The translations under genes were made by a program, and so were the position numbers. The notes below the pieces were generated by a model. That model saw nothing but the letters and a program-made list of their open reading frames with translations. It was not told the origin of the DNA and did not search any database. Positions 1 through 28,225 of a stretch of DNA of 29,332 bases are shown in pieces (position 1 is the first letter of the stretch; the number at the start of each line of letters is the position of its first letter). Source of the stretch: an uncultured Candidatus Micrarchaeota archaeon (GTDB lineage: Archaea > Micrarchaeota > Micrarchaeia > Burarchaeales > Fermentimicrarchaeaceae); NCBI GenBank assembly GCA_903921825.1, contig CAIXRF010000077.1, positions 1 through 29,332 on the forward strand. Direction: 5' to 3'.

Positions 1-485
1 ACTGCCTGCCCGATTCGTCCTGCATAGGCGGCGTATGCCGTGGCCAGGACTCAGACGGCGACGGAATTCCAGACGCACAGGACAACTGTCCCTCCGTATA
101 CAACCCCAGCCAGGCGGATAGCGATGGGGATCGCGTTGGTGACGCATGCGACAACTGCGTATATACACCCAATCAGAACCAGGCGGACAGCGATGGCGAC
201 GGAGTCGGCAATGTATGCGACAACTGCCCCGGCACATATAACCCAAGCCAGGCGGACAGCGATGGGGACAGAGTTGGCGACGCCTGCGACAACTGCATTT
301 ATACTCCCAACGCAGACCAGGCAGACGCCGATAGGGATGGCATGGGAGATGCGTGCGACACGTGCACACAGAACCAACAGTGCACCTATCCGCCTGAGAC
401 CTGCGACGCCTGCGATGTTGACTGCGAAGGGCAGACGGCTGACTGCGGGCATGGAACCTGCCAACACGGAAGATGCGCGCCCTGA
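1..485 (+). CDS. C-terminal fragment (5' truncated by the window edge) of an adhesin-like protein with thrombospondin type-3 (TSP3) Ca-binding repeats. Paralog of the downstream gene.
   Basis: Frame 3 is open from nt 3 to the TGA at 483-485. It translates to ...[37 protein letters not shown]..., repeated DxDxDGxxDxxDNC motifs. Nt 1-117 are identical to 1535-1651 inside the next gene. The tracked ORF 40..522 is in the wrong frame. Confidence 0.6.
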
Positions 486-516
486 CGCTAGCGTGCCACT
501 GAGCCCGCAGCAAAAC

Positions 517-529
517 ACTTAAAAGTAAT
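517..529 (+). promoter_or_regulatory. Candidate TATA box (cttaaaagtaat) for the 559..2307 gene.
   Basis: AT-rich octamer in a GC-rich background, 30-40 nt upstream of ATG 559. GGAGTG (547-552) lies 6 nt before that ATG. Confidence 0.4.
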
Positions 530-558
530 GCGTGCAAATTGGTAGCGGAGTGATTACG

Positions 559-2307
559 ATGACGCCACATGCTAATCTGAAGGGCCAATCCGCGATGCAA
601 GTTGCCCCTGGCGGGCAACAGCCTCAAGTCGCCTGCGGCGACAACTGCGCAACTCGCGTTGCGCATCGCGCCTGCCGCGGGCAGAGCGCGATGGAATTTC
701 TCATGACTTATGGCTGGGCCATTCTCGTCCTCATCATCGTTGTTGCAGTCCTATTTTACATCGGCGTGTTGAACCCGAAGAACACACAGACGAACACCCT
801 TCTCTTCGCACCCGGCTTAAGCGCATTTACATTCCGCCTGGGCAATGTAAGTGGCGCACTTGAACTGGACTTGGGCCAGGCGCAGGGCAAGTCCATAGTC
901 ATCACCGGAATCTCATGCTCCCAGGAGGCCGCTGCGCCAATACGCGACCTCAGCAGCCCGATACTCATCTCCACAGGCGAGCACAGGTGGGTTAGTGGGC
1001 CGAATTCCAACAACGAGGTCCTCTGCAGGGGAGAGGCTGACCAGCCGCTTCCGCCTGAGAATACACAGCTCGGCGAAAGATACAAGGGAAGGGTGTGCCT
1101 CAGGTACCAGGAATCGGACACTGGATTGAACCGGACTGTTTGCGGTGACTTGAACACAAAGTTTGAGACGAGCGGAACCGGTGGAGGCGGAGGAACGCCC
1201 ACAGCAACGCCGGGAGGCACTGCCACTCCAACGCCCACTGAGACGCCTACAGCCACACCAGAGCCAACCGCGACGCCCACATCTACGCCTTCCTGCTCCA
1301 ACGGAATCCAAGATGGCGATGAAACGGACGTAGACTGCGGAGGCAGCTGCCCCCCATGCGCAAATGGCAAGAACTGCGTCCAGGGTAGCGACTGCACGTC
1401 GCAAATCTGCTCTGGAGGCAGATGCCAAGTCCCATCCTGCTCTGATGGAGTCCAAAATGGCGAAGAAACTGATGTAGACTGCGGAGACGGCTGCTCCCCA
1501 TGTGCAAACGGCCAGAACTGCATCGGTGATAGCGACTGCCTGCCCGATTCGTCCTGCATAGGCGGCGTATGCCGTGGCCAGGACTCAGACGGCGACGGAA
1601 TTCCAGACGCACAGGACAACTGTCCCTCCGTATACAACCCCAGCCAGGCGGATTCGGATGGCGATGGAGTCGGCGACGCCTGCGACAACTGCCCATCTGT
1701 TTCCAACCACGACCAGGCAGATGGCGATCATGATGGCATGGGAGATGCGTGCGACACCTGCACGCGGAATGGCGTGTGCACTTATCCACCTGAGACATGT
1801 ACTGCCTGCTCCATTGACTGTGGCGGGCAACAGGCTGACTGCGGGCAGGGAGCCTCCTGTCTAAATAGTGTATGCTGCTCACCCAGGCCCGAAACATGCA
1901 ACGGCGTAGACGACGACTGCAACGGGGTTATTGACGATGGCCTAGGCTCAACCACCTGCGGCATTGGCGCTTGCCAACAAACAGTACAAAACTGTATAGA
2001 CGGCCAGACGCAGCACTGCGTCCCTGGCTCACCCCGCCCCGAAACATGCAACGGAATAGACGACGACTGCAATGGAGTAATTGATGACGGCCTAGGCTCA
2101 ACCAGCTGCGGCGTCGGCGCTTGCAGGGTAACAGTACAAAACTGTGTAAACGGCCAAACGCAGACCTGCGTCCCTGACCCACCCCGCGCCGAAACATGCA
2201 ACGGAATAGACGACGACTGCAATGGAGTAGTTGATGATAACCCTGGGAGCTTGTGCGGCCAAGGGCAGACATGCCAGAGTGGCCGATGCGTGCCCAATCC
2301 ACCATAA
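559..2307 (+). CDS. Pilin-like (class III signal peptide) adhesin. It has a PT linker, two Cys-rich EGF-like units, four or more TSP3 Ca-binding repeats, and three MopE-like putative metal-binding Cys repeats.
   Basis: The N-terminus ...[27 protein letters not shown] has Glu at +5 and a hydrophobic helix, typical of archaeal type IV pilin-like signal peptides. Downstream are [33 protein letters not shown], then 2x [28 protein letters not shown], then [15 protein letters not shown]... repeats, then 3x PRPETCNG(I/V)[14 protein letters not shown]...C. The track start 532 is GTG. ATG 559 is preferred because of the upstream GGAG. An even later start is possible. Confidence 0.8.
1885..2300 (+). 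repeat. Three tandem copies of a ~150-bp (50-aa) unit encoding the MopE-like Cys repeat.
   Basis: The string cccgaaacatgcaacgg(a/c)(a/g)tagacgacgactgcaa(c/t)gg... recurs at ~1888, ~2038 and ~2188 with high nucleotide identity. Confidence 0.7.
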
Positions 2308-7416: not shown

Positions 7417-8736
7417 ATGAGGTCTATTATATTCGCTCTCGCCCTTGCGCTGCTCGTTTCAAGCGTTTTTGCAAAGCCGCCTGAGCTCCAGGCGCTTGCC
7501 TCCGTGACATCATTCGAGGGATGGAACTGCAATCCCACGGGCGGGCCATACACGTTCACCGCAACAATCTACATCGCCAACCCCTACAACGGCACGATGA
7601 CGGTAAATTACACCTATTACGATTACTATGCGGGAAGGGAAACGGATGGCGGCCGCGTGTGCATGATTCAGGCGAACAACGAGGACCACTGCTCGTTCAC
7701 AATCCCCGTCACGCTGGGCGGGGAGGCCGCGGGCAACGCGAGCATGTCCGTGAAGCTATTTGCGTCGATAGACGGGGTCAGCGAGCAGCCGGAGAAGCGC
7801 ATCGACTACTCGTTCACGCATGCGCCCGCATCCACGGAAACGAACTCCCTCGCGAGCATAGCCGCGACGCAGGCAAGGCTCGATGGGGAAAACGTCGCCC
7901 TCTCGTCCGCGTGCACCGCGAACGGCGTGTGCTGCGGGATGGCTGGGCCGCAGGAGAAGCTCTCCGCGGCTGGTAGCAGCCTTGCGCTCGCCAGGGAGCT
8001 TGTGAGGCAGTGCAAGTTCAGCGACGCGACCACTACAACCGCCGCAGCCTCCGCGGACATCAACGGTGCCAACTCGACTTACCATTCCACGTTCAGGCAG
8101 TGCCAGTCAGCCCTGAACAACTACGCGTTTGCATATGGCAACCTCACGCGCGCGAACGAGACGCTGCTTAAGCGCGCGGCATGCGGGATGAACGTTTCGG
8201 CCTCCCGCACGGAGCTCGCAAACTCGGAAAGGCTCCTGGCGCAGGGCGCCGACAGGATAGAGGCCGACGCCTACTCGGACGCGGTGCTTTACCTAGAGCA
8301 GTCGCTTGAGACCACGAACGTCACATTCACTCTTTCGAATGACTGCCCGCTGGCAGGCCTGGGCTCCGCCGGGAACGTTACCGGGCCATCCCAGTCGCAG
8401 ACGCCTCCTCCGCAGCAGGCACCCGGAGAAGACCCGCTGTCAAAGGTGATAGGCGCGCTCGGCTACATAGTGATAGCTGCGATAATCATAGTGGTTGGCG
8501 CGGCAATCTACGTTTCGCTGGGCAAGAGGCACCTCGAAGGGATGATTAGCCGCGGGCCGCGCAGCGGCGCGGAACACCCCGGCGCACCGCCATCGCCAGG
8601 CGCGGAGCCCTCCGAAGAGCTGCCCCCGATTGACCACACCAAGGTGGAAGAGGAGTTCCAGGAGTGGCTGAAGAAGAGCGAAGCCGCGGAAGAAGCCCCA
8701 ACTGAAAAGCACGAGAAGCGCGGCAAGAAGAAATGA
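7417..8736 (+). CDS. Surface protein with a Sec signal peptide, an NxS/T-rich ectodomain, a C-terminal TM anchor, and a Lys/Glu-rich cytoplasmic tail.
   Basis: [19 protein letters not shown] is the signal peptide. ...[29 protein letters not shown] is the TM helix. The tail ...[29 protein letters not shown] is charged. TATA ggctttatatagc is at ~7373-7385 and the RBS aggtga at 7405-7410. Confidence 0.6.
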
Positions 8737-8792
8737 GGCCCGCGGCAAATCCATTTGAGCAGCCGCGGCAAAAACATTCCAAGGTGGTCGAG

Positions 8793-10679
8793 ATGGGTCA
8801 TAAGAACGCATTAGTTGCAGCCATCCTTCTGGTCGTGCTCTTCACGGCACGCGCGCCCGCAGCATCCGCGCCTGGGACGCAGCCGGCCGCTTTCGTAATC
8901 CCGAATTTCGTGGAAAACGGTTCCGCCTGGCATCGTTTCACCGTGAATGTCTCAAATCCCGCGAACGGGACAGCCTACAACTACGTCATAATGATATGGC
9001 CCGAAGCGGCCGCTTGGGAAGACCCGGGCCAGAGCGGATGCAGCGGCGGAGTGGTCGGAGTAAACAACAATAGCATCTACTGGAGAACGAGCAACTGCCC
9101 GCCACTGGGCGGCAGCATGGTCTTCAGCTTCGGCAAGGCGCTCAACCCAGTAAGCCTGAACACCACAAAGACAGTGCAGGTCTATGTGAGCAACGACAGC
9201 GGCGCAACGCTGGTGCCAGTTTCACCAACGAGCGGCTCGCCTGGCATCTGCACCGGCCCGATGAACAACCTGCAGATATGCCAGTACCTGCCCCCTCCCC
9301 CGAAGGTCATCAGCTCCTGCCCATACACAATAAACGCGCTGGCCAACTACACATTGGACGACAACCTCACCGCGGCAAACACGACGTGCATCGGAGTTAT
9401 GAGCGGAGGCAGCGGCTCAATGATAGACTGCAAGGGCCGCACTATAAACGGCACCGGAATGGCATACGGCATCTACCTGAACGACGCGAGTGGAATCCTG
9501 CTGAAGAACTGCACAATTACGCACTTCGAACGCGGAGTCTACCTCCTCAATGCCAGAAACAACACCATCCAGGACAGCTCATTCAACCTGAACGGCATCG
9601 GCGCCTACCTCTCCTCAAGCAACAACAACTCATTCCGCCGCGACAACTTCTCGGCAAACATCAATGACGGCGTACTAGTGCAGACCTCAACTACCAACGT
9701 ATTCGCCACCAATGAAATGTGCGCCGACCCGACCTACGGCGCTTACTGCTCCACGGCGCAGACCGGCGGGAGCAACAAGTGCGACACGGCCAAAGTCTCT
9801 TGCACTGGAATAACGTGCGGGACCGCATGCCCTACGCCCGCGCCCACCCCAACCCCAACTCCAACCCCGACACCGACGCCTACGCCAACTCCAACTCCCA
9901 CGGTGACGCCTACACCCACCGCGACGCCAACTCCAACCCCAACCCCCACACCAACGCCGTCTCCAACACCTACTCCAACTCCTACGCCATCCCCAACTCC
10001 GGCGCCCGGAACAATCACGTCCTGTCCCTACACGATAAGCATGCAGGGAAGCTATGCCCTCAACTCCAACCTGCAATCATCCGGCGGAACGTGCATAGGT
10101 GTAGGGACGGGAGGCAGCGGCTCCACGATTGACTGCAAGGGCCACACAATAAACGGCAGCGGCACAGGCTACGGAATCTACCTCAATGGCGCGGGCAGCA
10201 ACACGGTCAAGAACTGTACAATAGAGCATTTCGACAAGGGCGTCTATTTCCTCAACGCCAGAAACAACACCATCCAGGACAGCAACTTCATCCTCAACAG
10301 CTACGGCGCCTACCTCTCCTCAAACAGCAATGGCAACAGGATAACGAGCTGCGTCATGAATGCCAACGCCTACAAAGGGCTGTTCGTGCAGGCGTCGCGC
10401 GCCAACAACGTGAGCGCCAGTGAGGTTTGCTACAATGGCGACCCAATCTACGACCTCTACTGCTCCGCCGCGCAGGCGGGCGATGGCGGGAACTACTGCA
10501 ACACCACGAGAGCCCGCTGCAGCGGGATAACTTGCGGCTCGCCCTGTCCAGTTGTGACTCCAGCGCCCACCCCATGCATACCTGATGGGGACCCCTGCGG
10601 CGAAATCCCGTGCTGCTCAAGCTACTGCCATGGCGGGCTGGTATGCGGCCCAATGGTAACCCCAACGCCCACACCATAG
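8793..10679 (+). CDS. Secreted modular protein A: N-terminal unknown domain, two Cys-framed PbH1 (parallel beta-helix) modules separated by a long (PT)n linker, and a small Cys-rich C-terminal knot.
   Basis: Signal peptide [26 protein letters not shown]. The module ITSCPYTI...GGSGS(M/T)IDCKG(R/H)TINGTG.GYGIYLN...[34 protein letters not shown]..... occurs twice. The second-module version differs in places. The first module ends in [10 protein letters not shown]...[41 protein letters not shown]. The track start 8733 is replaced by ATG 8793 because the upstream word aaggtggtcgag ATG is shared with the next gene. Confidence 0.8.
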
Positions 10680-10712
10680 CCGATGCTCTGCCCTTTCTTG
10701 GTGCTGAGCGTT

Positions 10713-10733
10713 GCCGCCCTGAAAGCTATTTAA
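10713..10733 (+). promoter_or_regulatory. Conserved promoter block gccgccctgaaagctatttaa (TATA ctatttaa) upstream of modular protein B.
   Basis: The 21-mer matches 14199-14219 at 20 of 21 positions (a/c differs at position 10). It sits 37-44 nt upstream of ATG 10770. Confidence 0.5.
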
Positions 10734-10769
10734 GCAACCACCTGCAAATCAAACTCCAAGGTGGTCGAG

Positions 10770-13700
10770 ATGAATCCTAGGTCCGTTGTAGCGTCTATCC
10801 TGTTTGTCGCACTGTTTGCCGCGTTCGCTGCTGCGGCGCCTCCGGTTACCCACCAGCCGTCGCCAGTATGTTCCCAATACAACGAGACCAGCACAGGCTG
10901 TACGCCATATACCGGGCCACTCCTGAGTGATTCAGACGTCCAGAAAGAAGTCGGTGCCATTAACCAGAAGATAACGGAGCGAAATCTCAACTGGGTTGCA
11001 GGGGACAACTGGGTCGTGCGGCTGCCCGAAGCGGAGAGAACGCGCCTCCTGGGCGCAAAGCTATTTTCCCCGCAGGAAATGGAAGCGGCGGGCGTAAAAC
11101 CACTGTCTTATACTCCGGGCACAACGTTGCCGGTCGCTCTTGACTGGAGGAATAACGGAGGCAACTGGACCACGTCGGTAAAGAACCAAGGTGGATGCGG
11201 CTCGTGCTGGGCCTTTTCCGCGGATGGGGTCGTAGAGTCGCGGATGAACATCGATTTGGGCATCCCGCAATTCAATTATGTCCTTTCCGAGCAGGACCTT
11301 GTTTCCTGCTCCGGTGTAGGAAGCTGCAGTGGCGGCTACGAGGACCTGGCTATTGGCTATATTAATAATACTGGAACCACCAACGAATCCTGTTTCTCGT
11401 ACCAGGCATCCGACGTGTCATGCGGACTGAAATGCGCCAATTGGCAGGACCAGAAGGTGCGTGTAACCAATTATAGCTATGTCGCTGCCGGTGCCAACGC
11501 CATAAAACAGGCACTGAACACCTATGGCCCAGTTACCGTATCCATGCCTGTTTTTTCTGACTTCTTTGACTATTCCGGAGGCATTTATACCAGAACGTCT
11601 GACTATCTTGAGGGCTTCCACGCAATAGACATCGTCGGCTACAACGACACTGGCGGATACTGGATTGTTAAAAACAGCTGGGCTACCACCTGGGGTGAAA
11701 ACGGTTATTTCAGGATGAGCTATTCAGAAGATACAAACTATTCGACTTGGACTTGTTTTACTGTGTATGCCAGCTGTTCTCAGCCAGGCTCCTTTTTCAT
11801 GGACCAGAGCGTTGCCGTCATGAGCACAAACGCGCCAAGCCTGTTCAACTTCGGGTCGGTTTCGGGCTATGTGTTTGACGACCTAGCGCAGGGGATTGCG
11901 AGCGCAATTGTCAACGTGACGAATGCAAGCGGCTCGCCAACGAACCTCACGAATGCAAGCGGTTACTACATAATCGGTGTCGTTCCCGCCGGAACCTTTA
12001 GCATCAGCGCGAGGAAAAATGCCTCTCTTGGCACCAACACAACCACCGTGACCGTGGTTACAAACACCACCACCAATGTCAACTTCACTCTGTATGCGCC
12101 AACTCCGATTCCAACGCCAACCCCCGTGGTAATCAGCAGCTGCCCCTACACAATAAGCGCCCCAGGTGCCTACGTCCTGTCGTCAGACGTCAATTCGGCA
12201 AGTGGCTCGTGCATCGCCATATCCACGGGAGGCAGCGGCTCCACGCTTGACTGCCAGAACCACACAATAAACGGCAGCGGCACAGGCTACGGAATCTACT
12301 TCAACAGCGCAAGCGGCAGCATGGTAAAAAACTGCACTGTGAAGCGCTTCGCGCGCGGAGTCTACCTCTCCAGTGCGCGCAACAACACCATCCAGGACAG
12401 CGCATTCAACTCGAACAACTACGGCGCCTACCTATCCTCAAGCAACAACAACTCATTCCGCCGCGACAACTTCTCGGCGAACACCGCTGACGGCGTCTAT
12501 GTGGCGAGCTCAACTACCAACGTATTCGCCACTAACGAAATGTGCGCCGACCCGACCTACGGCGCTTACTGCTCCACTGCTCAGACAGGCGGGAGCAATA
12601 CCTGCAACTCATCCAAAATCTCTTGCAGCGGAGTAACGTGCGGCTCACCCTGCCCAGGCACGACTCCAACGCCTACACCCACTCCAACTCCAACACCCAC
12701 GGTGACGCCCACACCTACCGTTACGCCAACCCCCACTCCAACTCCGACTCCCGGCCCACCCACGCCCACCCCAACAGCTACCCCCACGCCAACTGCGACT
12801 CCAACTCCAACACCAACTCCAACCCCGACGCCCACCCCCACTCCAACTCCAGCGCCCGGAACAATCACATCCTGCCCATACACGATAAACGCCCCAGGTG
12901 CCTACATCCTAACGTCAAACATCAATTCGGCAAGCGGCACCTGCATTGCAATATCCACAGGAGGCAGCGGCTCCACGCTTGACTGCCAGGGCCACATGAT
13001 AAACGGCAGCGGCACAGGCTACGGCGTCTTCCTCAATAGCGCGGGCAGCAACACAGTCAAGAACTGCACTGTGAAGCACTTCGACAGGGGCATCTACCTT
13101 TCCAACGCCAAAAACAACACCATCCAGGACAGCTCTTTCAACGTAAATGCCTTCGGCGCCTACATCTACACCAACAGCAACAACAACTCTTTCCGCCGCG
13201 ACAATTTCTCAGCTAACACCAACAGAGGCGTCTATGTGATTTCCTCAACTACCAACGTATTCGCCAGCAACGAGATATGCGCCAACCCCACCCAGGACGC
13301 CTACTGCTCGGTGGCGCAGACAGGCGGGAGCAACACCTGCAACGTATCCAAAATCTCTTGCAGCGGAGTAACGTGCGGCTCACCCTGCCCAGGCACGACT
13401 CCAACGCCTACACCCACACCCACTCCAACCCCGACCCCGACGCCTACGCCCACTCCAACGCCCACGCCAACAGTAACACCAACGCCCACGGTTACGCCTA
13501 CGCCTACCGTGACGCCAACTCCGACTCCAACACCGACACCCACGCCAACTCCTACTCCAACCCCAACGCCGTCTCCAACGCCAAGCGGGACGGTCATTAC
13601 AACCTGCCCATACACAATAAGCATCCCAGGCACTTACATCCTCAGCGGAAACCTCAATTCGGCGAGCGGGACGTGCATAGGAATGACATCAGGGGGCAGC

Positions 13701-14141
13701 GGCTCCACGCTTGACTGCCAAAACCACACGATAAACGGCAGCGGCACCGGCTACGGAGTTTACCTAAATAGCGCAGGCAGCAGCACAATCAGGAACTGCA
13801 CAATCGAGCACTTCGACAAGGGCATCTACCTCTCCAACGCCAAGAACAACACCATCCAGGACAGCAACCTCATCGTCAACAACTACGGCGCCTACCTAGT
13901 GGCGAGCAGCAACGGCAACAGGATAACGAGCTGTGTCATGAACGCCAACACCTACAAGGGGCTGTTCGTGCAGACGTCGAGCACCAACAACGTGACCGCC
14001 AGCCAGACTTGTTTCAATGGCGACTCGATGTACGACCTCTATTGCTCCACGGCGCAGAGCGGGAACGGAGGCAACATCTGCACCACTTCGAGGGTTTCCT
14101 GCGGCGGAGTGACATGCAGCAGATCCTGCATCCCCGCCTAG
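10770..14141 (+). CDS. Secreted modular protein B: signal peptide, possible propeptide, papain-like C1A cysteine peptidase, CarbopepD_reg-like beta-sandwich, then three PbH1 modules joined by (PT)n linkers.
   Basis: Signal peptide [24 protein letters not shown]. The peptidase motifs [22 protein letters not shown] (Cys active site), [35 protein letters not shown] (His/Asn) and LSEQDLVSC read like papain itself. A CarbopepD_reg-like stretch (GYVFDD...[34 protein letters not shown]) follows. Then come three ~180-aa modules matching those in genes A and C. The track start 10761 is GTG. ATG 10770 follows the aaggtggtcgag word. Confidence 0.85.
12110..14141 (+). repeat. Three tandem module-plus-linker units (period ~733 bp) with high nucleotide identity. 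The same module recurs in genes A and C.
   Basis: Modules start at ~12131, 12865 and 13597 (atcagcagctgcccctacacaataagc...). Related copies start at 9309, 10017 and 14335. The string ggaggcagcggctccacg(c/a)ttgactgcca recurs at ~10110, 12229, 12961, 13693 and 14437. Confidence 0.75.
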
Positions 14142-14150
14142 CCAAAGCAC

Positions 14151-14172
14151 CTTCTTTTCCTTTTCTTTCCGT
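14151..14172 (+). terminator. T-rich tract after protein B. Candidate terminator.
   Basis: The sequence cttcttttccttttctttcc follows directly after the TAG at 14139-14141. Confidence 0.3.
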
Positions 14173-14198
14173 CTTGGCAGCGGCAGCTTTCCGGCGCG

Positions 14199-14220
14199 GC
14201 CGCCCTGCAAGCTATTTAAA
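14199..14220 (+). promoter_or_regulatory. Conserved promoter block gccgccctgcaagctatttaaa (TATA ctatttaaa) upstream of modular protein C.
   Basis: It matches 10713-10733 at 20 of 21 positions (c/a differs). It sits 34-42 nt upstream of GTG 14254, with a caaggtga word in between. Confidence 0.5.
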
Positions 14221-14253
14221 CTACGTGAGGCAAAAAAGAGTCAAGGTGATTTC

Positions 14254-16062
14254 GTGAGTCCTAGACCCCTGTTTGCGCATGCATTCTTGTTCATCGCACT
14301 TCTTGCGGCTTCCGCTGCAGCACCCGGGATAGCAATCACTTCCTGCCCGCGCACGATAAACGCCCCAGGCACTTACGTCCTCACCTCGGACCTAAACTCT
14401 CCGGGCGGGACGTGCATAGGCGTGGGCGCAGGCGGCAGCGGCTCCACGATTGACTGCCAGGGGCACCTAATCAGGGGCCCCGGCGCTGCGGGCTACGGGC
14501 TCTATCTCAACGGAGCGAGCTACGTTACGGTGCGGAACTGCACATTCCGGAGCTTCGACCGCGGAATATACCTCTCCTCAGCAAGGTACAACACCATTCA
14601 GGACAGCTCTTTCAACGCGAATAATATCGGCGCATACATCTATTACAACAGCAACAACAACACGTTCCTGCGCAGCAACTTCTCGGTGAACCGCGACAAA
14701 GGAGTATACGTATTCACATCCATAGGCACCGTATTCACCACCAATGAAATGTGCGCTGACCCAACCTACGACGCCTACTGCTCATCGGCGCAGACCGGCG
14801 GGAGCAACACTTGCGACACTGCCCTGGTCTCCTGCTCTGGCGTCACGTGCACGCATGCATGCCCAACCCCAGGGCCGACCCCCACGCCGACCGCCACCCC
14901 CACTCCTGTTCCGCCGACGCCCACCCCAACTCCGACTCCCGGCCCACCGACGCCCACCCCCACAGCCACTCCAACGCCCGTTCCGACGCCACCAGCATGT
15001 GCCTCGCCTGGCGGGGTTGTGAGCACCTGCCCATGCACCATCAACGCGAAGTCAAACTACTCCCTAAACCACAGCCTGACCGCCAACGGCACCTGCCTCA
15101 CATTCAACACAGGCGCAAGCAATTCCACGCTTAACTGCAACAACTTCAGCATCACCGGTCAGAACAACGGATACGGAATCCTCATGAACGGCGCCTATTA
15201 CATGAACGTGACGAACTGCAACGTGACCAATTTCACCTACGGCTTCTACCTGAGCGGGGCCAGCAGCAACAACATCCGCGCAAGCAGGGTATACCTGAAC
15301 ATATACGGCTTCTTCCTGAGCTACGCCTCCAACAACAACATCACCAGCAACACCGTCTGCTACAACCCAGTGGACCTCTACTGCGAGGCTTCACCGGGCA
15401 ACGCAGGCAGCGACGTCTACGACCGGAACACCGGGTGCGTGAGCATCACCAAGAGCGCATCCTGCCCGCCAGCCCCAACGCCTACGCCAACTCCCACGCC
15501 TGCGCCCACCCCTACTCCAGGCCCAATCACCATAAACGCATGCCCATTCACCATAAACAGCGCAGGGACATACCGCCTTACCCATGACCTCACAGCGAAC
15601 GGGACGTGCATAGGCATAATGAGCGGAGGAAGCGGCGCAATACTGGACTGCTACGGCTACGCCCTCTTCGGGAACGGCACAGGCTACGGGATTTACATGC
15701 AGACGAACAACGTCCTTGTCACCAATTGCGAAGTCAGCGGCTTCGACCGCGGCATTTACATGAAGAGTTCCAGCAGCAACAACTTTTTAGCAAACCTGCT
15801 CGAGCGCAACAACATCGGTGCCTACCTCTACGGCAGCAACTACAACCACTTCGACAGCAACATATTCGTCTCCAACCGCGACCGGGGGATTTACGTGCTG
15901 ACCTCGAGCAACAACCAGTTTTACAACGGCGAGATATGCTACAACGGAAACAGCAACAACGATGTCTACTGCTCAACTGCCCAGACTGGCGGGCTCAACG
16001 TCTACTGCGACATCTCGCGGATTTCCTGCCCCGGCGTAACCTGCGATGTGGGCTGCCCCTAG
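14254..16062 (+). CDS. Secreted modular protein C: one canonical and two diverged PbH1 modules with (PT)n linkers.
   Basis: Signal peptide MSPRPLFAHAFLFIALLAASAAAPG. Module 1: [44 protein letters not shown]...[24 protein letters not shown]...[41 protein letters not shown]. Later modules (TCPCTINAKSNYSL..., NACPFTINSAGTYRL...) are more diverged but keep the NxS/T-rich beta-helix periodicity and the terminal ...YCSTAQTGG...SCPGVTCDVGCP. GTG start. Confidence 0.8.
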   Translation: MSPRPLFAHAFLFIALLAASAAAPGIAITSCPRTINAPGTYVLTSDLNSPGGTCIGVGAGGSGSTIDCQGHLIRGPGAAGYGLYLNGASYVTVRNCTFRSFDRGIYLSSARYNTIQDSSFNANNIGAYIYYNSNNNTFLRSNFSVNRDKGVYVFTSIGTVFTTNEMCADPTYDAYCSSAQTGGSNTCDTALVSCSGVTCTHACPTPGPTPTPTATPTPVPPTPTPTPTPGPPTPTPTATPTPVPTPPACASPGGVVSTCPCTINAKSNYSLNHSLTANGTCLTFNTGASNSTLNCNNFSITGQNNGYGILMNGAYYMNVTNCNVTNFTYGFYLSGASSNNIRASRVYLNIYGFFLSYASNNNITSNTVCYNPVDLYCEASPGNAGSDVYDRNTGCVSITKSASCPPAPTPTPTPTPAPTPTPGPITINACPFTINSAGTYRLTHDLTANGTCIGIMSGGSGAILDCYGYALFGNGTGYGIYMQTNNVLVTNCEVSGFDRGIYMKSSSSNNFLANLLERNNIGAYLYGSNYNHFDSNIFVSNRDRGIYVLTSSNNQFYNGEICYNGNSNNDVYCSTAQTGGLNVYCDISRISCPGVTCDVGCP

Positions 16063-16151: not shown

Positions 16152-16610
16152 ATGGACGAGGCGAAACTTGAGAAGCTTGCAGACAACCTGGTGCTGCTGA
16201 TGCGGGTATTCCGCATCATGCTGGCGGGCAGCGAGGGCCATGGGCCCAAGATAATGCCGCTGGACCCGCAATACTGGGTCCTTGGCATCCTGCAGCGCGG
16301 CGACCTGCCCATGTCCGAGCTCGGGAGGCGCCTCCACAGGTCCAAGCCGAACATGACCGCAGTGGTTAATAGCCTCATTGCAGACGGCAGGGTGGCAAGG
16401 CGGCCGGACAAGAGCGACCGGCGCATCGTCCGGATATCCATAACGCCGAAAGGGCGCGCGTTCCTGAAAGGGGCGAAGATGGCGGTCAAGGCGAACATGA
16501 AGCGGAACCTCTCGCGCCTGAGCAGCGGGGACCTCGACACCCTTTACTCCTCGCTGGAAGAAGTGAACAGGGTGATTGGCAAGGCGAGCGGTGGTTTGCA
16601 TGGCACCTGA
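16152..16610 (+). CDS. MarR-family winged-helix transcriptional regulator.
   Basis: 152 aa. wHTH: LPMSELGRRLHRSKPNMTAVVNSLIADGRVARRPDKSDRRIVRISITPKGRAFL. It is the first gene of an efflux operon. Confidence 0.85.
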   Translation: MDEAKLEKLADNLVLLMRVFRIMLAGSEGHGPKIMPLDPQYWVLGILQRGDLPMSELGRRLHRSKPNMTAVVNSLIADGRVARRPDKSDRRIVRISITPKGRAFLKGAKMAVKANMKRNLSRLSSGDLDTLYSSLEEVNRVIGKASGGLHGT

Positions 16611-17289
16611 GAAGAGCGCGAAAGTGCATCACGAGGCGCCAGCGGAGAAAAAAGGCGGCCCAGCCGCAGCTCTCGCCGCCATCCGCAACCACCCGCTTCT
16701 TGCAGAGGCGGTCCTCCTTATTGCCATAGTTGCGCTGATAGGAGGATACTTCTATTGGCAGGACATGCAGGGCAAGATATACCTGGAGAAGACAGTGATA
16801 AGCGCGCCGCTCATCTCGCTCGCGCCCCAGGCGCCGGGGCAGATAACCGAGGTCTATGTGAAGGAAGGCGACAGGGTTGCGAGGGGCCAGCGGCTCGCAA
16901 AGGTCGGGGACCAGTACGTCACCGCAAAGACCTCCGGAATAATCGTTTCGGTCAACAATGCGCCAGGGCAGATGGCGACCGCGCAGACGCCGGTCGTGAC
17001 GATGATAGACCCCACGCAGCTGCGCCTCATCGGCCGCGTAGAAGAGGACAAGGGGCTGAGCGACATCCGCCCGGGCCAGCGCGTCGCATTCACCGTTGAT
17101 GCGTTCGGCGCCAAGGAATACGAAGGCGTCGTGGAGTCCATAGCCCAGAGCGCGCACCAGTCTGACGTCGTTTTCAGCATCTCGGACAAGCGGGCGGAGC
17201 AGGAATTCGACGTGAAAGTCTGGTTCGACACCTTCACCTACCCTGAGCTCAAGAACGGCATGTCTGCGAAAATGACTATCTACAAATGA
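16600..17289 (+). CDS. HlyD/EmrA-family membrane fusion (periplasmic adaptor-like) protein.
   Basis: N-terminal TM anchor LLAEAVLLIAIVALIGGYFYW, then a biotin-lipoyl-like and beta-barrel part (LAPQAPGQITEVYVKEGDRVARGQRLAKVGDQY...IDPTQLRLIGRVEEDKGLSDIRPGQRVAFTVDAFG...). ATG 16600 is preferred over the track's TTG 16576 because GGTGG sits 5 nt upstream. It overlaps the marR stop. Confidence 0.78.
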   Translation: MAPEKSAKVHHEAPAEKKGGPAAALAAIRNHPLLAEAVLLIAIVALIGGYFYWQDMQGKIYLEKTVISAPLISLAPQAPGQITEVYVKEGDRVARGQRLAKVGDQYVTAKTSGIIVSVNNAPGQMATAQTPVVTMIDPTQLRLIGRVEEDKGLSDIRPGQRVAFTVDAFGAKEYEGVVESIAQSAHQSDVVFSISDKRAEQEFDVKVWFDTFTYPELKNGMSAKMTIYK

Positions 17290-18773
17290 TGCGCATGGCC
17301 GAACAGAGCGACAATCTCCGTTGGCTGATACTCCTTACTGTCATAATCGGCACATTCATGGGCAGGCTCGACCAGACAATCGTGAACCTCGCCCTGCCAA
17401 AGATAATAAGCGAGTTCTCAATCTCCATCCCGGAGGCGAGCTGGATAGCCACCGCCTACATACTCGCAAACGCGATATTCGTGCCCGTGTGGGGAAAGCT
17501 CGGTGACACGCAGGGAAGGAAGAAGATATACATCCTCGGCTTCGCGATATTCATCTCCGGCTCGGTCCTTGCAGGCCTTGCCTGGAACCTCAGCTCGCTG
17601 CTGGCGTTCCGCGTCATCCAGGCAATCGCCAGCTCCGCCGACTACCCGACCGCAATGGCGATACTCGCGGTCACTTTCAGGCAGGGAAGGGAGCGCGCCG
17701 AGGCGCTCGGCCTGTGGTCCGCCTCCTTCGCCGCGGCCGCGGTGTTCGGCCCGCTCGTCGGAGGCCCGCTGATAGACACGTTCGGCTGGAGGTCGGTGTT
17801 CCTCGTGAACCTGCCCGTCGGGATAATCGGCCTCGCCATGGCGCTCCTCTTCGTGAAGGAATCAACCGGCAGGCCTACCGCGAAGTTCGACCTGTGGGGC
17901 GCAATCACGCTCGGCATCTGCCTTTCCTCTTTCGTCCTGGTCCTGGACCAGGGGCTGGACTGGGGCTGGATGTCAACGAACAGCCTGCTCTGCTACGCAA
18001 CGACGATACTCTTCGGTTACATCTTCTACCAGATAGACACGAACCACCCCGAGCCGATAGTCGACTTCAAGTTCTTCAAGATAAACGCGTTCGTGAATGC
18101 GCTCGTCAACAACGTAGTGGTCTTCATGGGCATGATGGGCGGCCTCTTCATCCTGCCCGTCTTCGTCCAGACCTACCTCGGCTACAACGCGACGCAGACG
18201 GGCTACCTTTTCATGCCCATGGCGTTCAGCATGCTCATCGCGGCGCCGATAGGCTCGAGCCTCGTTGGCAGGGTCCAGCCGAAATACGTTATCGCGTTCA
18301 GCACGCTCATGGCTGCGGCAGGGCTCTACCTGTTCACCGGCCTCGACCCGCGCTCCGGAGTCCTCGACATCATAATCCCCATCATGGTGATGGCTTTCGG
18401 GATGGGCCTCGGCATGCCGCAGCGCACGAACATCATCGCCTCCGCGGTGCCCGAATCGGAAATAGGCATCGCGTCCTCTGTTCTCGCACTGGCAAGGAAC
18501 ATAGCGGGCGCGTTCGGAATCGCGCTCTTCGCAACCATCCTGAAGGAGAGCACTGAGGGCTACGCGCTCGCGCTCTCCCAGAACACGGTCATCAACACGC
18601 TGGACCCGGTGCTGAGGGCGGAAGCGATAGCGCTGATGACCCTGAAGGCGCAGATTCTCGCCTACCACGAGGTCTTCATCGTCTCGTCGGCGATACTCCT
18701 GGTCGCGTCGGCCCTCGCCCTCACCATCCATGTGAGGGAAACGAAGACGGGCAAGGAAGTCTTCGTGGACTAG
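17286..18773 (+). CDS. MFS transporter, DHA2 (EmrB/QacA-like, 14-TMS) drug:H+ antiporter family.
   Basis: ...LILLTVIIGTFMGRLDQTIVNLALPKIISEF...YILANAIFVPVWGKLGDTQGRKKIYILG...AFRVIQAIASSADYPTAMAIL... matches the DHA2 pattern. The length (495 aa) fits 14 TMS. Its ATG overlaps the HlyD stop in an ATGA arrangement. Confidence 0.88.
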   Translation: MMRMAEQSDNLRWLILLTVIIGTFMGRLDQTIVNLALPKIISEFSISIPEASWIATAYILANAIFVPVWGKLGDTQGRKKIYILGFAIFISGSVLAGLAWNLSSLLAFRVIQAIASSADYPTAMAILAVTFRQGRERAEALGLWSASFAAAAVFGPLVGGPLIDTFGWRSVFLVNLPVGIIGLAMALLFVKESTGRPTAKFDLWGAITLGICLSSFVLVLDQGLDWGWMSTNSLLCYATTILFGYIFYQIDTNHPEPIVDFKFFKINAFVNALVNNVVVFMGMMGGLFILPVFVQTYLGYNATQTGYLFMPMAFSMLIAAPIGSSLVGRVQPKYVIAFSTLMAAAGLYLFTGLDPRSGVLDIIIPIMVMAFGMGLGMPQRTNIIASAVPESEIGIASSVLALARNIAGAFGIALFATILKESTEGYALALSQNTVINTLDPVLRAEAIALMTLKAQILAYHEVFIVSSAILLVASALALTIHVRETKTGKEVFVD

Positions 18774-25782: not shown

Positions 25783-26262
25783 TCACGACACTTCCACGTG
25801 GTAGCTTATGTCGCCCACGATGTTGTGCAGTATGCCCGTCCTGTCGTCCGTGTATCCTATGTAGATGGTTCCGCGGTAGAACTCCCCTGCAGCGGGATAG
25901 GTACCGTCCGCCTTCTCGCAGTTCGGGAGCCCGGTGAGGTTCTTGTGCCTGCCGCTCTGCACTATGATCGCGGGACTTACCGTGACGATGTACGGGTCAG
26001 TCTCCTTGGCCGAGCAGCCTATGGACGTCAGCCGTATGTCTCCGCCGCTAGCCTGCCCCAGGTCCAGCTCGAGGACGCCTCCGTCCTTCACTGAATAACC
26101 GTAGCAGGAGAAGCCCCCGGGAAGGACGCACGAGTTCGGCGATGCGGTCTGGGGGTTGAACACGCCCAGCATGAAGAGGACCGCAACTACTACAAGCATG
26201 ATTAGGACTGCCCAACCGTAAGTCATGAGGAATTCCATAGCTGATTGGCCGCGCATGTCCAT
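25783..26262 (-). CDS. Pilin-like protein with a class III signal peptide.
   Basis: [37 protein letters not shown], with Glu at +5, then a ~110-aa globular part. ATG 26262 is preferred: GGAGAGGTG lies 7 nt upstream, and the track's 26268 is TTG. Its stop is 4 nt from the CDP-alcohol transferase start. Confidence 0.8.
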   Translation of the reverse strand: MDMRGQSAMEFLMTYGWAVLIMLVVVAVLFMLGVFNPQTASPNSCVLPGGFSCYGYSVKDGGVLELDLGQASGGDIRLTSIGCSAKETDPYIVTVSPAIIVQSGRHKNLTGLPNCEKADGTYPAAGEFYRGTIYIGYTDDRTGILHNIVGDISYHVEVS

Positions 26263-26300
26263 ATTCAAACACCTCTCCGGAGGTAGTTAAGTGGGCGCAT

Positions 26301-26316
26301 TTATAAGGCTTTTCGG
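26301..26316 (-). promoter_or_regulatory. Shared pilin promoter word: TATA TTATAA plus adjacent GGCTTTTCGG (plus-strand reading).
   Basis: The 16-mer ttataaggcttttcgg is identical at 28840-28855 upstream of another pilin gene. It lies 39-54 nt upstream of ATG 26262. Confidence 0.55.
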
Positions 26317-26317
26317 C

Positions 26318-28156
26318 TCACATCGGGCATGGAGTGTATGACGGTATTGCGCAGCCCGTCTGCTGGTAAAACGTGTTGTTGCTGCCGATTGTCTGTGTGT
26401 TGCTGCACCAGAGGTCGTTCCACGCTATCCCCCGCATGTTGTAGCAGACATAATCATCCGTTAGATTGACCGTGTTCGTGCCGATGGTCATGTTTACTCC
26501 TGTCGCAAAGTTGATGACGCTGCAGTTCTCGATGGTCATCGGAGCTTTCACGAGTATGCCCGTGCCAAAGTTATCCGTATTGTTTATGAAGTTGCCGCTG
26601 CAGTTCAGCGTCGAGCCTTCCGCCCCAGACTCGAAGTCTATGCACGGGAACGTTCCGCCGTAGTTGTTTATCTCGTGGGTCAGGTAGTAGCTTCCGGCTG
26701 CGCTCACCACCGTTCCGCAGTATGCTATCTCGCCGCCTGGCTCCGGCGTGTGCATGGTGCACGGCGCGGCCCTCATGATTCCGCCGCAGCCCGTGTTCGT
26801 GTCAAACGTGTCATCGCCGGAGTTGCCGCTTCCGCCACCGCAGCTGAAGTCCGTAGGGTTGGAGCAGACCGTGTTGCCCGTTATGTTGTTGCTGCTGCTG
26901 GACACGGCCAATTCAACGCCCATAGCGCTGTTCGACTCGATGGTGTTTCCGGAAACGTTGTTGCCGTTGCTGCTGTAGATCTGGAGGCCATGCCCGCAGG
27001 AGTGGGCGTTCAAGCTAAGCGTGTTCCCAGTAATTGTATTGCCATTGCTGCCGGACTCCATCGAGATGCCATTGCAGTTCGAACTGGCATCGTTGTCCGT
27101 GATGTTGTTGTTGCTTGACCCAGAGAGGTACATGCCAGCGCCCACATGGGCGTCTTCGCTGAGGACGTTGTACTCCAGCGTGTTGTGCGCAATGTTGTTG
27201 CCGTTGGACGCATACAGGTAAATGCCCACCTCAAAATACCTCACGGTGCAGTGGCTGACATTCACATTGCTCATGCCCCATGACAGTATGCCTGCGCCCC
27301 AGTTGGTGTTGCCCGTGATTACGTTGTCATTGCAGTCAAGGGTCGAGCCGGATGCGCCTGGAGTGACGTTTATGCAGCTGCAGTCAAAAGATCCGCTTGG
27401 GCAGCTGCTGCCCCCGGTCAGCGGGCCGCTGAGCGTGTAGTCGCCCTGAACGGTTAGCTCCGAGCCTGCTGGCCATGGCGTGTTCGGGTCGCAGGTGGTG
27501 ATTACCTCACTAATTGGCGTCGGAGTCGGAGTGGGCGTAGGCGTCGGCGTAGGCGTTGGCGTCGGAGTTGGAGTCGGAGTGGGCGTCGGAGTAGGCGTAG
27601 GTGTAGGCGTTGCCGTCGGAGTCACCGTGGGCGGCGGAGTTACTTGCTGCACCGCTATCTCCTCATACTTCAGCGACACATCTGCGGCGACCTGGCGCGT
27701 GAACCCCGTGTCCAGCTCCACGTATTCAACGAACATCTTCCCCTTGAACAGGTTGCCTGCCCTTCCGGTTGCAGTGCTGCCATCCTCACTGTGGCACACC
27801 TTTGAGCCGCTTTGGATGAACGCATGGTCCCCATCCACTATCATGACTGGGCTGTCCAGCGCGTCGCCAGAGCCTAGCACCGGCGAGCCCTCCGCGGTGC
27901 ACCTTATCCTCGTGACGTTTATCTGGTGGCCCGTGGACTGGCCGAAGTCAATCCCGAAATTGCCAGTGGTGTTCAGAAGAGGGCCTTTGCACAGGAAATT
28001 CGCCGGGAAGACGCACGTTGAAGCGAGGGGCGTCCTCGGGTTTATCAGGCCGACCCACAGCAGCATGCCTATCGCCACGAGCATTATCAGAATCGCCCAC
28101 CCGTAGGTGGTCAAGTATTCTATCGCCGACTGCCCGCGCAAAGTTTTTGTCGCCAT
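26318..28156 (-). CDS. Pilin-like (class III signal peptide) protein fused, through a long (PT)n linker, to a parallel beta-helix (PbH1/NosD-like) domain.
   Basis: MATKTLRGQSAIEYLTTYGWAILIMLVAIGMLLWVGLINP, then a ~140-aa pilin-like globule, then [35 protein letters not shown]. After that come GN(T/N)I(T/S)(G/D)N repeats (ITGNTLSLNAHSCGHGLQIYSSNGNNVSGNTIESNSAMGVELAVSSSSNNITGNTV...). RBS GGAGGGGTG upstream. Confidence 0.8.
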   Translation of the reverse strand: MATKTLRGQSAIEYLTTYGWAILIMLVAIGMLLWVGLINPRTPLASTCVFPANFLCKGPLLNTTGNFGIDFGQSTGHQINVTRIRCTAEGSPVLGSGDALDSPVMIVDGDHAFIQSGSKVCHSEDGSTATGRAGNLFKGKMFVEYVELDTGFTRQVAADVSLKYEEIAVQQVTPPPTVTPTATPTPTPTPTPTPTPTPTPTPTPTPTPTPTPTPISEVITTCDPNTPWPAGSELTVQGDYTLSGPLTGGSSCPSGSFDCSCINVTPGASGSTLDCNDNVITGNTNWGAGILSWGMSNVNVSHCTVRYFEVGIYLYASNGNNIAHNTLEYNVLSEDAHVGAGMYLSGSSNNNITDNDASSNCNGISMESGSNGNTITGNTLSLNAHSCGHGLQIYSSNGNNVSGNTIESNSAMGVELAVSSSSNNITGNTVCSNPTDFSCGGGSGNSGDDTFDTNTGCGGIMRAAPCTMHTPEPGGEIAYCGTVVSAAGSYYLTHEINNYGGTFPCIDFESGAEGSTLNCSGNFINNTDNFGTGILVKAPMTIENCSVINFATGVNMTIGTNTVNLTDDYVCYNMRGIAWNDLWCSNTQTIGSNNTFYQQTGCAIPSYTPCPM

Positions 28157-28191
28157 GTGGCACCCCTCCTTCAGTTAGTTGGGAAAGGCGT

Positions 28192-28200
28192 GTTTATAAT
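28192..28200 (-). promoter_or_regulatory. TATA box (tttataat on the plus strand; attataaa on the minus strand) for the pilin-PbH1 gene.
   Basis: It lies 36-44 nt upstream of ATG 28156 and is followed by GGAGGGGTG. Confidence 0.45.
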
Positions 28201-28225
28201 TTTGAGGGTGCGCGCCCGCCATAAA

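Follow-up and report, generated by a model that had tools for sequence, protein, structure and literature searches.

The window, a 29,332-nucleotide stretch of DNA from an uncultured Candidatus Micrarchaeota archaeon, encodes a protein in which a DPANN pilin module has been joined, by way of a Pro/Thr linker, to a 338-aa repeat passenger. This protein is probably an archaeal 'modular' type IV pilin, in which a pilin serves as carrier for an adhesive stalk stabilised by Ca2+. Its likeliest function is that of a sticky adhesin borne on a pilus; the architecture is unusual but of a kind already known in bacteria. Most DPANN archaea are obligate episymbionts, whose means of gripping hosts or surfaces are largely uncharacterised at the molecular level. 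The locus provides a concrete adhesin candidate and points to a large, unannotated DPANN pilin family lacking a Pfam model. About one-fifth of this family consists of modular pilins, extending a concept so far catalogued for bacteria only. In one lineage the carrier has taken on disulfide-rich modules with predicted Ca2+ binding that are otherwise typical of adhesion proteins in bacteria and animals, which suggests cross-domain module capture and overturns no current view.

The gene, placed by the list of open reading frames and start-codon analysis, occupies positions 559–2307 of the forward strand including the stop codon and encodes 582 aa, within a frame that is open and uninterrupted from 532 to 2307. 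Reading of the sequence suggests a putative promoter and ribosome-binding site on the same strand (517–553), with a TATA-like ACTTAAAAGTAA at 517–528 and a Shine-Dalgarno-like GGAGTGA at 547–553, both upstream of the ATG at 559. An exact database look-up of the protein, from the starts at 559 and 532, returned no record; the gene is recoverable only indirectly, as P0263 and P0103. P0263 is its counterpart in an independent ENA assembly, 96% identical and with one repeat unit fewer.

The leader (559–681, forward strand, from the translation) comprises 41 aa with 3 Cys, ends in R-G (...HRACRG) and contains a decoy KGQSAM motif at 580–597, 32 residues before the real motif. Cleavage is predicted after the Gly encoded at 679–681, between G41 and Q42, giving a mature N-terminus beginning Q-S-A-M-E-F. 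The family alignment and an AlphaFold2 (AF2) model identify the following segment (682–771, forward strand) as the hydrophobic α1 helix of a type IV pilin at the predicted mature N-terminus, carrying Q and E at +1 and +5, respectively. The core of an archaeal class III signal, [KR]-[GA] followed immediately by a hydrophobic stretch of ~20–30 residues with Q+1 and E+5, is present, and the motif presumably fits a FlaFind-type pattern. The length of the leader is atypical: such leaders are short and positively charged (~3–20 aa), whereas this one spans 41 aa from the ATG at 559, or 33 aa from the ATG at 595, with no start codon nearer the cleavage motif. Across the pilin family the leader is basic and typically ~6 aa (median; 5–95% range 4–21). 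Homologous extended leaders occur in the tandem paralog described below, in L092–L094 and in P0039, and AF2 confidence is low over the leader. Because a 41-aa leader with a decoy lies far off the family norm, the cleavage site may differ from the predicted one. Two candidate identities for a 96-nt in-frame insert in the leader were rejected: a mobile element, as the insert is present in a single copy within the window, and a structured RNA, with a fold z-score of −1.0 and 29 of 200 shuffles folding equally well.

A globular β-sandwich domain of 134 aa with 4 Cys (772–1173, forward strand, assigned by predicted fold) completes the pilin module, which spans aa 42–205. The AF2 model of this module (pLDDT 92.7) shows a long N-terminal α-helix (residues 5–32) and a β-sandwich head, as in solved archaeal pilins, and the Protein Data Bank (PDB) entries closest to it are those of type IV pili and archaellins from archaea. 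A cleavage-type motif, an N-terminal helix and an Ig-like β-sandwich are shared with archaeal type IV pilins such as those of Pyrobaculum (8fk7, 6w8u); by contrast, at the sequence level the identity with solved pilins is just ~10%. No curated pilin or class III signal model, in Pfam or in NCBIfam at E up to 10, recognises the N-terminal part, and the assignment as a pilin comes instead from the homologous family together with the fold prediction. The earlier note had proposed a class III signal on a pilin-like protein; motif, family and predicted fold bear this out, with the reservation that the long decoy-bearing leader is atypical and curated models do not match.

The N-terminal domain is a member of a family of ~157-aa proteins that spans DPANN, lacks annotation and has more than 570 loci in species-representative genomes. 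None of 101 homologs carries a precomputed Pfam domain. The pilin domain is 60% identical to that of the family member P0001, and the cleavage-type motif is conserved among 64 aligned members, in which six positions (E, T, Y, G, W, A) do not vary. Three-quarters of the family are at most ~185–225 aa long, while about 17–24% of ~200 sampled members exceed 230 aa. About 20% bear other C-terminal passengers, including DUF2341 (PilY-type), Laminin_G_3 (LamG), β-propellers, FN3-like domains and β-helices; modularity is a property of the family. The passenger described here was found in none of the ~200 sampled members; its occurrences in other assemblies are confined to this same gene and the tandem paralog.

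No ATPase or platform protein of type IV filaments and no prepilin peptidase is encoded in the 29-kb contig or in the 10 kb past its right end, and for that reason the assembly of the protein into filaments is a prediction. We considered whether it might instead be a membrane-anchored surface protein, using its class-III-type N-terminus for export and anchoring only and holding the stalk in a coat or matrix. Such an arrangement would resemble the Sulfolobus bindosome, in which sugar-binding proteins carry class III signals; such signals are documented on non-pilin proteins of archaea, reportedly also by Szabo et al. in 2007. The lack of assembly machinery near the gene and a passenger twice the size of the pilin module favour this reading, as does the family at large, in which the assembly ATPase T2SSE lies within 4 kb of a member at only 3 of 80 loci (L021, L041 and L073). 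The ATPases at these three loci are, in turn, indirect evidence for the pilin reading. We nevertheless regard it as unlikely, since conservation extends beyond the signal to the entire globular pilin domain, with the identity to P0001 and the model confidence given above. Moreover, archaeal pilin genes as a rule stand alone, at a distance from the machinery (PMC4858521), and in bacteria, pilins whose modules are just as large are incorporated into pili (PMC8179133).

If the protein is a filament subunit, its position in the filament has to be considered. Three further pilin-family genes, recognised by their N-termini, form a cluster on the reverse strand at the distal end of the window (25783–28804). 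They encode a 192-aa protein (28804–28226), a 612-aa protein with a pilin module and a NosD/β-helix passenger (28156–26318; NosD and Beta_helix Pfam matches) and a ~159-aa protein (26262–25783). No type IV filament machinery was found near this cluster either. The modular protein could itself be the major pilin, with every subunit of the body bearing a passenger on a flexible linker in a 'bottle-brush' pilus. The length and predicted disorder of its linker agree with this, as Raynaud et al. (PMC8179133) leave room for a body location where the linker is flexible, and two near-identical tandem copies could reflect a demand for high expression. Against this, the small canonical paralogs of ~159 and 192 aa suit the role of major pilin, three-quarters of the family are of similarly modest size, and a 338-aa passenger at each subunit rise would be sterically demanding. 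A body location is thus very unlikely. Owing to its bulk, we expect the modular pilin to be placed at low abundance or at the tip.

The architecture of a modular pilin is complete here: an entire pilin module, a linker of 39 aa and a passenger with recognisable TSP_3 and PF11617 modules. The linker (1174–1290, forward strand, from sequence), which had been noted earlier as a PT linker and is indeed present, is Gly followed by Pro/Thr-rich sequence. In the full-length model it has pLDDT values under 50 and is predicted to be disordered. The passenger is Asp-rich, contains 46 Cys and is built from three kinds of repeat; its pLDDT also falls below 50 in the full-length AF2 run, in which the alignment comprised pilin homologs only. 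The family resemblances set out below suggest that it may bind Ca2+, form disulfides and mediate adhesion.

The passenger begins with two 48-aa, eight-Cys 'type-1' units (1291–1578, forward strand), as anticipated, which form a direct DNA repeat with 81% identity and follow the pattern SC-S-[ND]-G-x-Q-[DN]-G-[DE]-ETDVDCG-x-x-C-x-PCANG-x-NC. They constitute an unclassified repeat family, with no match in Pfam, NCBIfam or the PDB, and are common as tandem arrays in bacterial-looking surface proteins (for example P0292, with 12 units).

A thrombospondin type-3 (TSP3) block follows (1579–1761, forward strand), with three DxDxDGxxDxxD motifs and DNCP/ACDNC cysteines. Pfam TSP_3 (PF02412) matches the isolated region in 3 stretches at 48.7 bits (cut-off 25, E = 5.9e-13) and the whole protein at 34.3 bits against the same cut-off. 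A PDB sequence search matched residues 341–400 to cartilage oligomeric matrix protein (COMP; 3fby, E = 2.8e-40), with further matches to TSP-2 (1yo8/2rhp), TSP-1 (1ux6) and bacterial OmpA (5wtl). All PDB matches of the protein are restricted to residues ~341–404. The three predicted Ca2+ loops and their flanking Cys pairs align residue-for-residue to the repeats of COMP, TSP-1/2 and OmpA. The earlier note had identified these repeats correctly but counted at least four; there are three, and it is the upstream paralog that has five. The consensus DxDxDGxxDxxD-NCP-x3-N-x2-Q with paired cysteines is that of the thrombospondin/COMP T3 'wire' (3fby, 1yo8, 1ux6) and of OmpA (5wtl). By analogy, the block would be wrapped around Ca2+ and stapled by disulfides, with no hydrophobic core. 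Unlike thrombospondins, the protein has only three motifs and lacks EGF-like repeats, the C-terminal lectin-like globe and the coiled coil, and it is therefore best described as TSP3-repeat-containing rather than as a thrombospondin. Pfam returned no EGF or TSP_C match in the protein. The NCBIfam match to Myxococcus MtsC (NF047638), a TSP3 protein, lies far under the cut-off (48 versus 350 bits).

Beyond a 39-aa spacer with 8 Cys (1762–1878, forward strand), which matched no family in a profile search and whose diverged form, by paralog alignment, ends the tandem paralog, the protein terminates in MopE-type units (1879–2304, forward strand, from PF11617 and TRF). PF11617 matches this block in 3 stretches at 58.7 bits (cut-off 27, E = 6.5e-16), and the Asp-rich repeats score above the curated Pfam cut-offs for both TSP_3 and PF11617. 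Every unit opens with ETCNGxDDDCNGVxDD. Three tandem 50-aa repeats had been expected, and PF11617 does match three times, but only two units are full (1879–2028 and 2029–2178; 50 aa, six Cys each). The third (2179–2304) is cut short at 42 aa, and its likeness to the others is limited to the first ~20 residues. In the DNA, the block appears as a tandem repeat with a period of 150 at 1877–2238 (TRF; 2.4 copies, 87% matches), in line with the ~150-bp repeat noticed earlier. Units 1 and 2 differ by 8 synonymous and 9 non-synonymous codons, and the number of MopE-type units differs between this gene and P0263 (3 versus 2 units).

The name of PF11617, 'Cu-binding_MopE / putative metal-binding motif', raises the question of whether the repeats bind copper or other transition metals, for acquisition or sequestration as in Methylococcus MopE. 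The three matches above cut-off, the 46 Cys and the many Asp residues of the passenger would agree with such a role. 'Metal-binding' is, however, the label of the family as applied to these sequences. The copper site of MopE, formed by two His and a kynurenine, lies outside the PF11617 motif, and the motif offers no His, Met or Trp ligands; the units themselves contain neither His nor Trp. Their even, regular Cys spacing, at six per unit, suits structural disulfides, and the motif is found mainly in giant myxobacterial surface proteins and PilY1 adhesins. A PDB search with the 141-aa MopE-type region found no relatives at E up to 10, and one with a 26-row profile of the passenger matched TSP3 proteins only, the MopE structure being among the misses. 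A search for informative literature on PF11617/MopE-related proteins found none. We consider a role in metal handling highly improbable and retain the adhesive stalk as the preferred reading of the passenger.

The gene has a tandem neighbour. At the left end of the window, positions 3–485 of the forward strand encode the 3' end (160 aa and the stop codon) of an upstream paralog, identified by translation and by identity to the C-terminus of P0103 (483 aa). Five TSP3 motifs and a short Cys-rich cap are present in it, whereas MopE-type units are absent. The contig carrying P0103 (L003) overlaps window positions 1–717 at 100%, and window positions 1–119 are 100% identical to 1535–1653. The two paralogs share a ~1-kb 5' module (pilin, linker and first repeats) at 100% identity, while their 3' cassettes differ. 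Unique flanks fix the gene order as paralog A, intergenic region, modular pilin gene and Band_7. This is a real gene: at least three assemblies contain it intact, with conserved synteny, and its repeat units differ both synonymously and non-synonymously. We give next to no credence to an assembly artefact or decaying pseudogene, in which an archaeal pilin was joined to bacterial repeat DNA at a collapsed repeat; the contig does begin within a repeat, the shared ~1 kb is not phasable by short reads and other assemblies have their contig breaks at these very points, but the pilin–passenger and passenger–Band_7 junctions each recur in the same order in several independent assemblies (the window, the P0263 contig and L003), the frame is open throughout and the GC content is uniform at 0.59.

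Taken as a modular type IV pilin, the protein would be cut after Gly41 by a class III (prepilin) peptidase. Its mature N-terminal helix would then be pulled from the membrane by type IV filament machinery whose genes would lie in another part of the genome, and the subunit would enter filaments as a low-abundance or tip pilin, the filament body being built of the small paralogs (161–192 aa). Outside the cell, the passenger may take the form of an extended stalk that is locked by disulfides and stiffened by Ca2+, like the T3 wire of thrombospondin/COMP, and that mediates adhesion to, or cohesion with, a host cell, a matrix or a surface. A tandem paralog with another 3' cassette, together with variable repeat number, would diversify the adhesive end. 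A bolder version of this model, to which we assign only a small chance, holds that the DPANN pilin is a general display scaffold and the locus a case of cassette-type adhesin diversification in a host-dependent archaeon. Here, the two tandem genes would share a homogenised carrier and differ in cassettes captured from bacterial (myxobacteria-like) surface proteins, which set host or surface specificity; the number of repeats would vary from population to population, and the decoy-motif leader would gate or time processing.

The closest parallels to a modular pilin are bacterial. We take IPR021655 to be the MopE-type motif, from the InterPro–Pfam mapping, and PF18884 is bacterial TSP3. Bacterial modular pilins include Streptococcus sanguinis PilB (vWA) and PilC (lectin) and ETEC CofB, for which a tip location was proposed, with the vWA module of PilB making it a tip adhesin (PMC8179133, Raynaud et al. 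2021). The same catalogue of 264 architectures lists pilin–FecR–IPR021655 ×3–6 and pilin–PF18884 ×4 (PMC8179133), and in it modules of the MopE type and of TSP3 each turn up alone on bacterial pilins and on PilY1 proteins. The shared design is a small class-III-signal carrier, a linker and a bulky module, which in the bacterial proteins binds ligands, often metal-dependently. Whereas bacterial carriers are of the N-methylation type (IPR012902, G|FxxxE), the present carrier is archaeal and DPANN-specific, with [KR]G|QSAME and a β-sandwich head. The combination of three repeat types is absent from the 264 architectures (PMC8179133) and was not found on another archaeal pilin in our family and homolog samples. 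The combination had been suggested to be new on a pilin scaffold; this holds for the three modules together, but the grafting of modules onto pilins had already been described.

Among archaea, class-III-signal proteins with adhesin-like domains are reported in the available parts of Makarova et al. 2016 (PMC4858521) and of a preprint (10.64898/2026.04.22.720090). The archaeal TFF-locus proteins treated there (M. maripaludis Epd, DUF2341/PilY-like) resemble the present family, in which relatives have DUF2341, LamG and β-helix passengers. Those parts of the two sources make no mention of a TSP3/MopE passenger or a 41-aa decoy leader.

Known counterparts of the MopE-type units are the PF11617 proteins of Myxococcota and other bacteria, which likewise have tandem 50-aa, six-Cys units with a CNGxDDDCxGxxDE start; identity to myxobacterial units is 55–65%. 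Those proteins differ in being large, bacterial and equipped with Sec or lipoprotein signals. MopE proper is set apart from the present units by its copper-site residues, which they lack, and by the failed match to its structure. Units of the myxobacterial type often share a polypeptide with TSP3 repeats and eight-Cys type-1 units.

The gene at 559–2307 (+) encodes a protein in which the N-terminus of a DPANN pilin family carries a passenger of eight-Cys, TSP3 and MopE-type modules. The open frame extends over 532–2307 (+) in an ORF listing. From the sequence context, ATG 559 is the most plausible start, giving a product of 582 aa, with a Shine–Dalgarno-like GGAGTGA (547–553, +) and a TATA-like ACTTAAAAGTAA (517–528, +) upstream. 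On the plus strand, translation yields a 41-aa leader (559–681), a predicted hydrophobic mature N-terminus (682–771), a globular domain of 134 aa (772–1173), a Gly/Pro/Thr linker (1174–1290), two 48-aa eight-Cys units (1291–1578), a 61-aa TSP3 block with three DxDxDGxxDxxD motifs (1579–1761), a 39-aa Cys-rich spacer (1762–1878) and the MopE-type units (1879–2304), each beginning with ETCNGxDDDCNGVxDD. This layout bears out the overall description in an earlier note with three adjustments: the TSP3 motifs number three rather than at least four; two of the three C-terminal repeats are full 50-aa units with six Cys, the third being a truncated 42-aa variant; and the class-III signal peptide has its motif, in an atypical form with a 41-aa leader and a decoy motif. 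Tandem Repeats Finder reported 2.4 copies of a 150-nt period at 1877–2238 (87% matches), and a repeat search of the window found the eight-Cys unit duplicated in DNA (144 nt). MopE-type units 1 and 2 are separated by 8 synonymous and 9 non-synonymous codon differences, so they do not stem from a recent duplication; their encoded sequence is apparently maintained.

Pfam searches of the passenger placed both assignments made earlier by eye above their cut-offs, each over three stretches: TSP_3 at 48.7 bits (cut-off 25, E = 5.9e-13) and PF11617 ('Cu-binding_MopE / putative metal-binding motif'), which we take to be the same entry as IPR021655, at 58.7 bits (cut-off 27, E = 6.5e-16). Searched against all PDB sequences, residues 341–400 matched COMP (3fby, E = 2.8e-40), thrombospondin-2 (1yo8/2rhp), thrombospondin-1 (1ux6) and a bacterial OmpA with TSP3 repeats (5wtl), and the Cys positions and acidic loop of the TSP3 block align with these chains. 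Neither the MopE-type region nor the eight-Cys units found a PDB relative, with a single sequence or a 26-row profile. The eight-Cys unit, with the 48-aa pattern C-x-[DN]-G-x2-[DN]-G-x-E-T-D-[VI]-D-C-G-G-x-C-x2-C...C-x5-C-x4-C-x4-C, lacks a Pfam or NCBIfam model and seems to represent a repeat family not yet curated. It is widespread, recurring in long tandem arrays across many proteins that look mostly bacterial (for example P0292, P0345 and P0283); P0292 is lipoprotein-like with 12 units, and P0283 combines the unit with MopE-type units. An exhaustive phmmer search returned 62,446 proteins at E ≤ 1e-3, mostly giant repeat proteins. In a word-indexed search, the named matches were bacterial (Myxococcota, 'Deltaproteobacteria', Polarisedimenticolia and Phycisphaerae), and TSP_3 and PF11617 often occurred together in single bacterial polypeptides.

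The N-terminus matched no curated Pfam or NCBIfam model. Its 169-aa region has 101 homologs, nearly all of 145–200 aa and without a Pfam domain, those with names belonging to Micrarchaeota, Woesearchaeota or Nanoarchaeota. Their N-termini follow M-x(2-6)-[KR]-[GA]-QSAME[FY]LMTYGWAIL..., and an alignment of 64 family sequences shows no variation at E, T, Y, G, W and A. An AlphaFold2 model from this alignment (pLDDT 92.7) predicts a helix (residues 5–32) followed by a nine-strand beta-sandwich, for which the sole Foldseek match in the PDB at E ≤ 1e-3 was the archaeal type IV pilus of Pyrobaculum calidifontis (8fk7). Species-representative genomes contained more than 573 loci with E[FY]LMTYGW; the 80 kept for analysis are labelled almost entirely as DPANN MAGs, with a few 'uncultured Methanosarcinales', 'uncultured archaeon' or Acidiferrales. 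Three of the 80 (L021, L041 and L073) have a T2SSE-family ATPase gene less than 4 kb away, immediately downstream in L021. On this evidence, pilin identity of the N-terminus is well supported; processing and filament assembly we infer.

The leader is unusually long, at 41 aa against a family median of 6 aa. A decoy cleavage-type motif, KGQSAM, lies 32 residues upstream of the actual RG|QSAMEF (559–700), and without the 96 nt (32 codons) that separate the two QSAM motifs the protein would start as a canonical pilin does. The insert is kept in paralog A (P0103, 483 aa), the tandem gene upstream (430–560 of its 2,113-bp contig, L003). L092, L093 (with three motifs), L094 and P0039 have extended leaders, homologous or analogous to this one, that contain one or two decoy [KR][GA]QSA[MI] motifs; doubled or tripled motifs were present in 6 of the 225 family ORFs scanned, plus P0039. 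The insert is single-copy in the window, and its fold (z = −1.0) is not significant for a structured RNA.

Modularity is a trait of the family. Among the 80 genome loci, the length of the mature protein has its median at 157 aa and its 90th percentile at 420 aa; among 80 metagenome loci, 23.5% exceed 230 aa. Passengers include DUF2341 (a PilY-associated domain treated by Makarova et al., PMC4858521), Laminin_G_3, lactonase-type and LDL-B-type beta-propellers and an FN3-like domain. The middle gene of a three-gene pilin-family cluster in the contig (25783–28804, −) encodes another modular pilin, a 612-aa fusion of the pilin module to a NosD/right-handed beta-helix domain (28156–26318, −). TSP3, MopE-type and eight-Cys modules occurred in none of ~200 complete family members sampled, and a search of 5.8 billion proteins found them together with the pilin module only in paralog A and P0263, the focal gene's counterpart in a third assembly. 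The count of modular members that carry repeat passengers may be too low, given that assemblies break within such genes. A related metagenomic pilin (L097, Ga0315276_10374815, 1009–1522) enters a Pro/Thr linker (APTSATPVPTATPTPSPTAT) and ends at the contig edge.

Bacterial modular pilins number 1,219 in 264 architectures, including pilin-IPR006860-IPR021655 x3/4/6 and pilin-PF18884 x4, alongside PilY1 proteins with IPR021655 or IPR003367 repeats (Raynaud et al., PMC8179133); the survey used the bacterial signature IPR012902, archaeal pilins lying outside its coverage. Taken singly, the modules of the focal protein are thus already known from tip proteins of bacterial pili, which makes the novelty narrower than the earlier note implied. 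New against that catalogue are the carrier, an archaeal (DPANN) family, and the joining of the three modules, along with the long leader and the arrangement in tandem cassettes.

The focal protein is most likely a modular pilin with an adhesive Ca2+ stalk, a reading modelled on bacterial modular pilins (PMC8179133) and on archaeal class-III-signal proteins with adhesin-like domains (PMC4858521; 10.64898/2026.04.22.720090). Its architecture and family memberships are established; cleavage, assembly, Ca2+ binding and adhesion we infer. Prepilin peptidase would cut after G41, and the subunit would dock via its alpha-1 helix into a type IV filament, the body of which would consist of small paralogs; the bulk of the subunit suggests a tip position or low abundance. 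The PT linker would hold away a disulfide-locked stalk, made rigid through Ca2+, that could bind a surface, matrix or host cell. A surface protein simply anchored in the membrane is an unlikely reading that deserves some weight: the longer 49.5-kb contig of a related assembly has no gene for an assembly ATPase, platform or peptidase within 10 kb of the minus-strand pilin cluster, and only 3 of 80 family loci have a T2SSE-family ATPase nearby. A major 'bottle-brush' pilin seems improbable for so bulky a subunit, and MopE-like copper handling, suggested by the name of PF11617, is more doubtful still.

Unique flanks place paralog A first, followed by a 73-nt spacer, the focal gene and Band_7. The window is a whole contig of 29,332 bp beginning within the 3' end of the upstream paralog (nt 3–485); L003 overlaps 1–717 at 100% and reaches further upstream. 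Over ~1 kb (roughly 650–1653) the DNA of the two genes matches at 100%, a stretch spanning the pilin domain, linker, both eight-Cys units and first TSP3 motif; they diverge at both ends, with different 5' leaders and 3' cassettes (1–1653 versus L003 430–1881). TSP3 motifs number five in paralog A, which lacks MopE-type units, and the focal gene has three motifs of each kind. Gene conversion or cassette exchange may account for this pattern, as may consensus collapse by the assembler. The contig start coincides with the paralog repeat, where other assemblies also break. P0263 (532 aa) has the same synteny and one 50-aa MopE-type unit fewer than the 582-aa focal protein, reflecting either real copy-number variation of the 150-bp repeat or assembly collapse. 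That the focal gene as a whole is an artefact is barely credible alongside this counterpart.

Genes for phosphopantothenate synthetase, geranylgeranyl reductase and RpoK mark the surroundings as archaeal, and the closest named matches of a Hef-like helicase come from Candidatus Iainarchaeum (62%) and Micrarchaeota (about 55%). The source is thus a DPANN archaeon; window GC is 59%. Three consecutive large secreted NosD/beta-helix proteins (8733–16062, +) form a surface or extracellular protein island in this small-genome archaeon; the first has a Pro-rich PARP-like stretch, and the middle one (10761–14141, 1126 aa) also carries papain-family C1 peptidase and CarboxypepD_reg domains. At 16576–18773 (+), the gene for a 237-aa HlyD-type membrane-fusion-like protein directly precedes and overlaps one for an MFS transporter, so that this archaeal contig holds an efflux pair of bacterial style.
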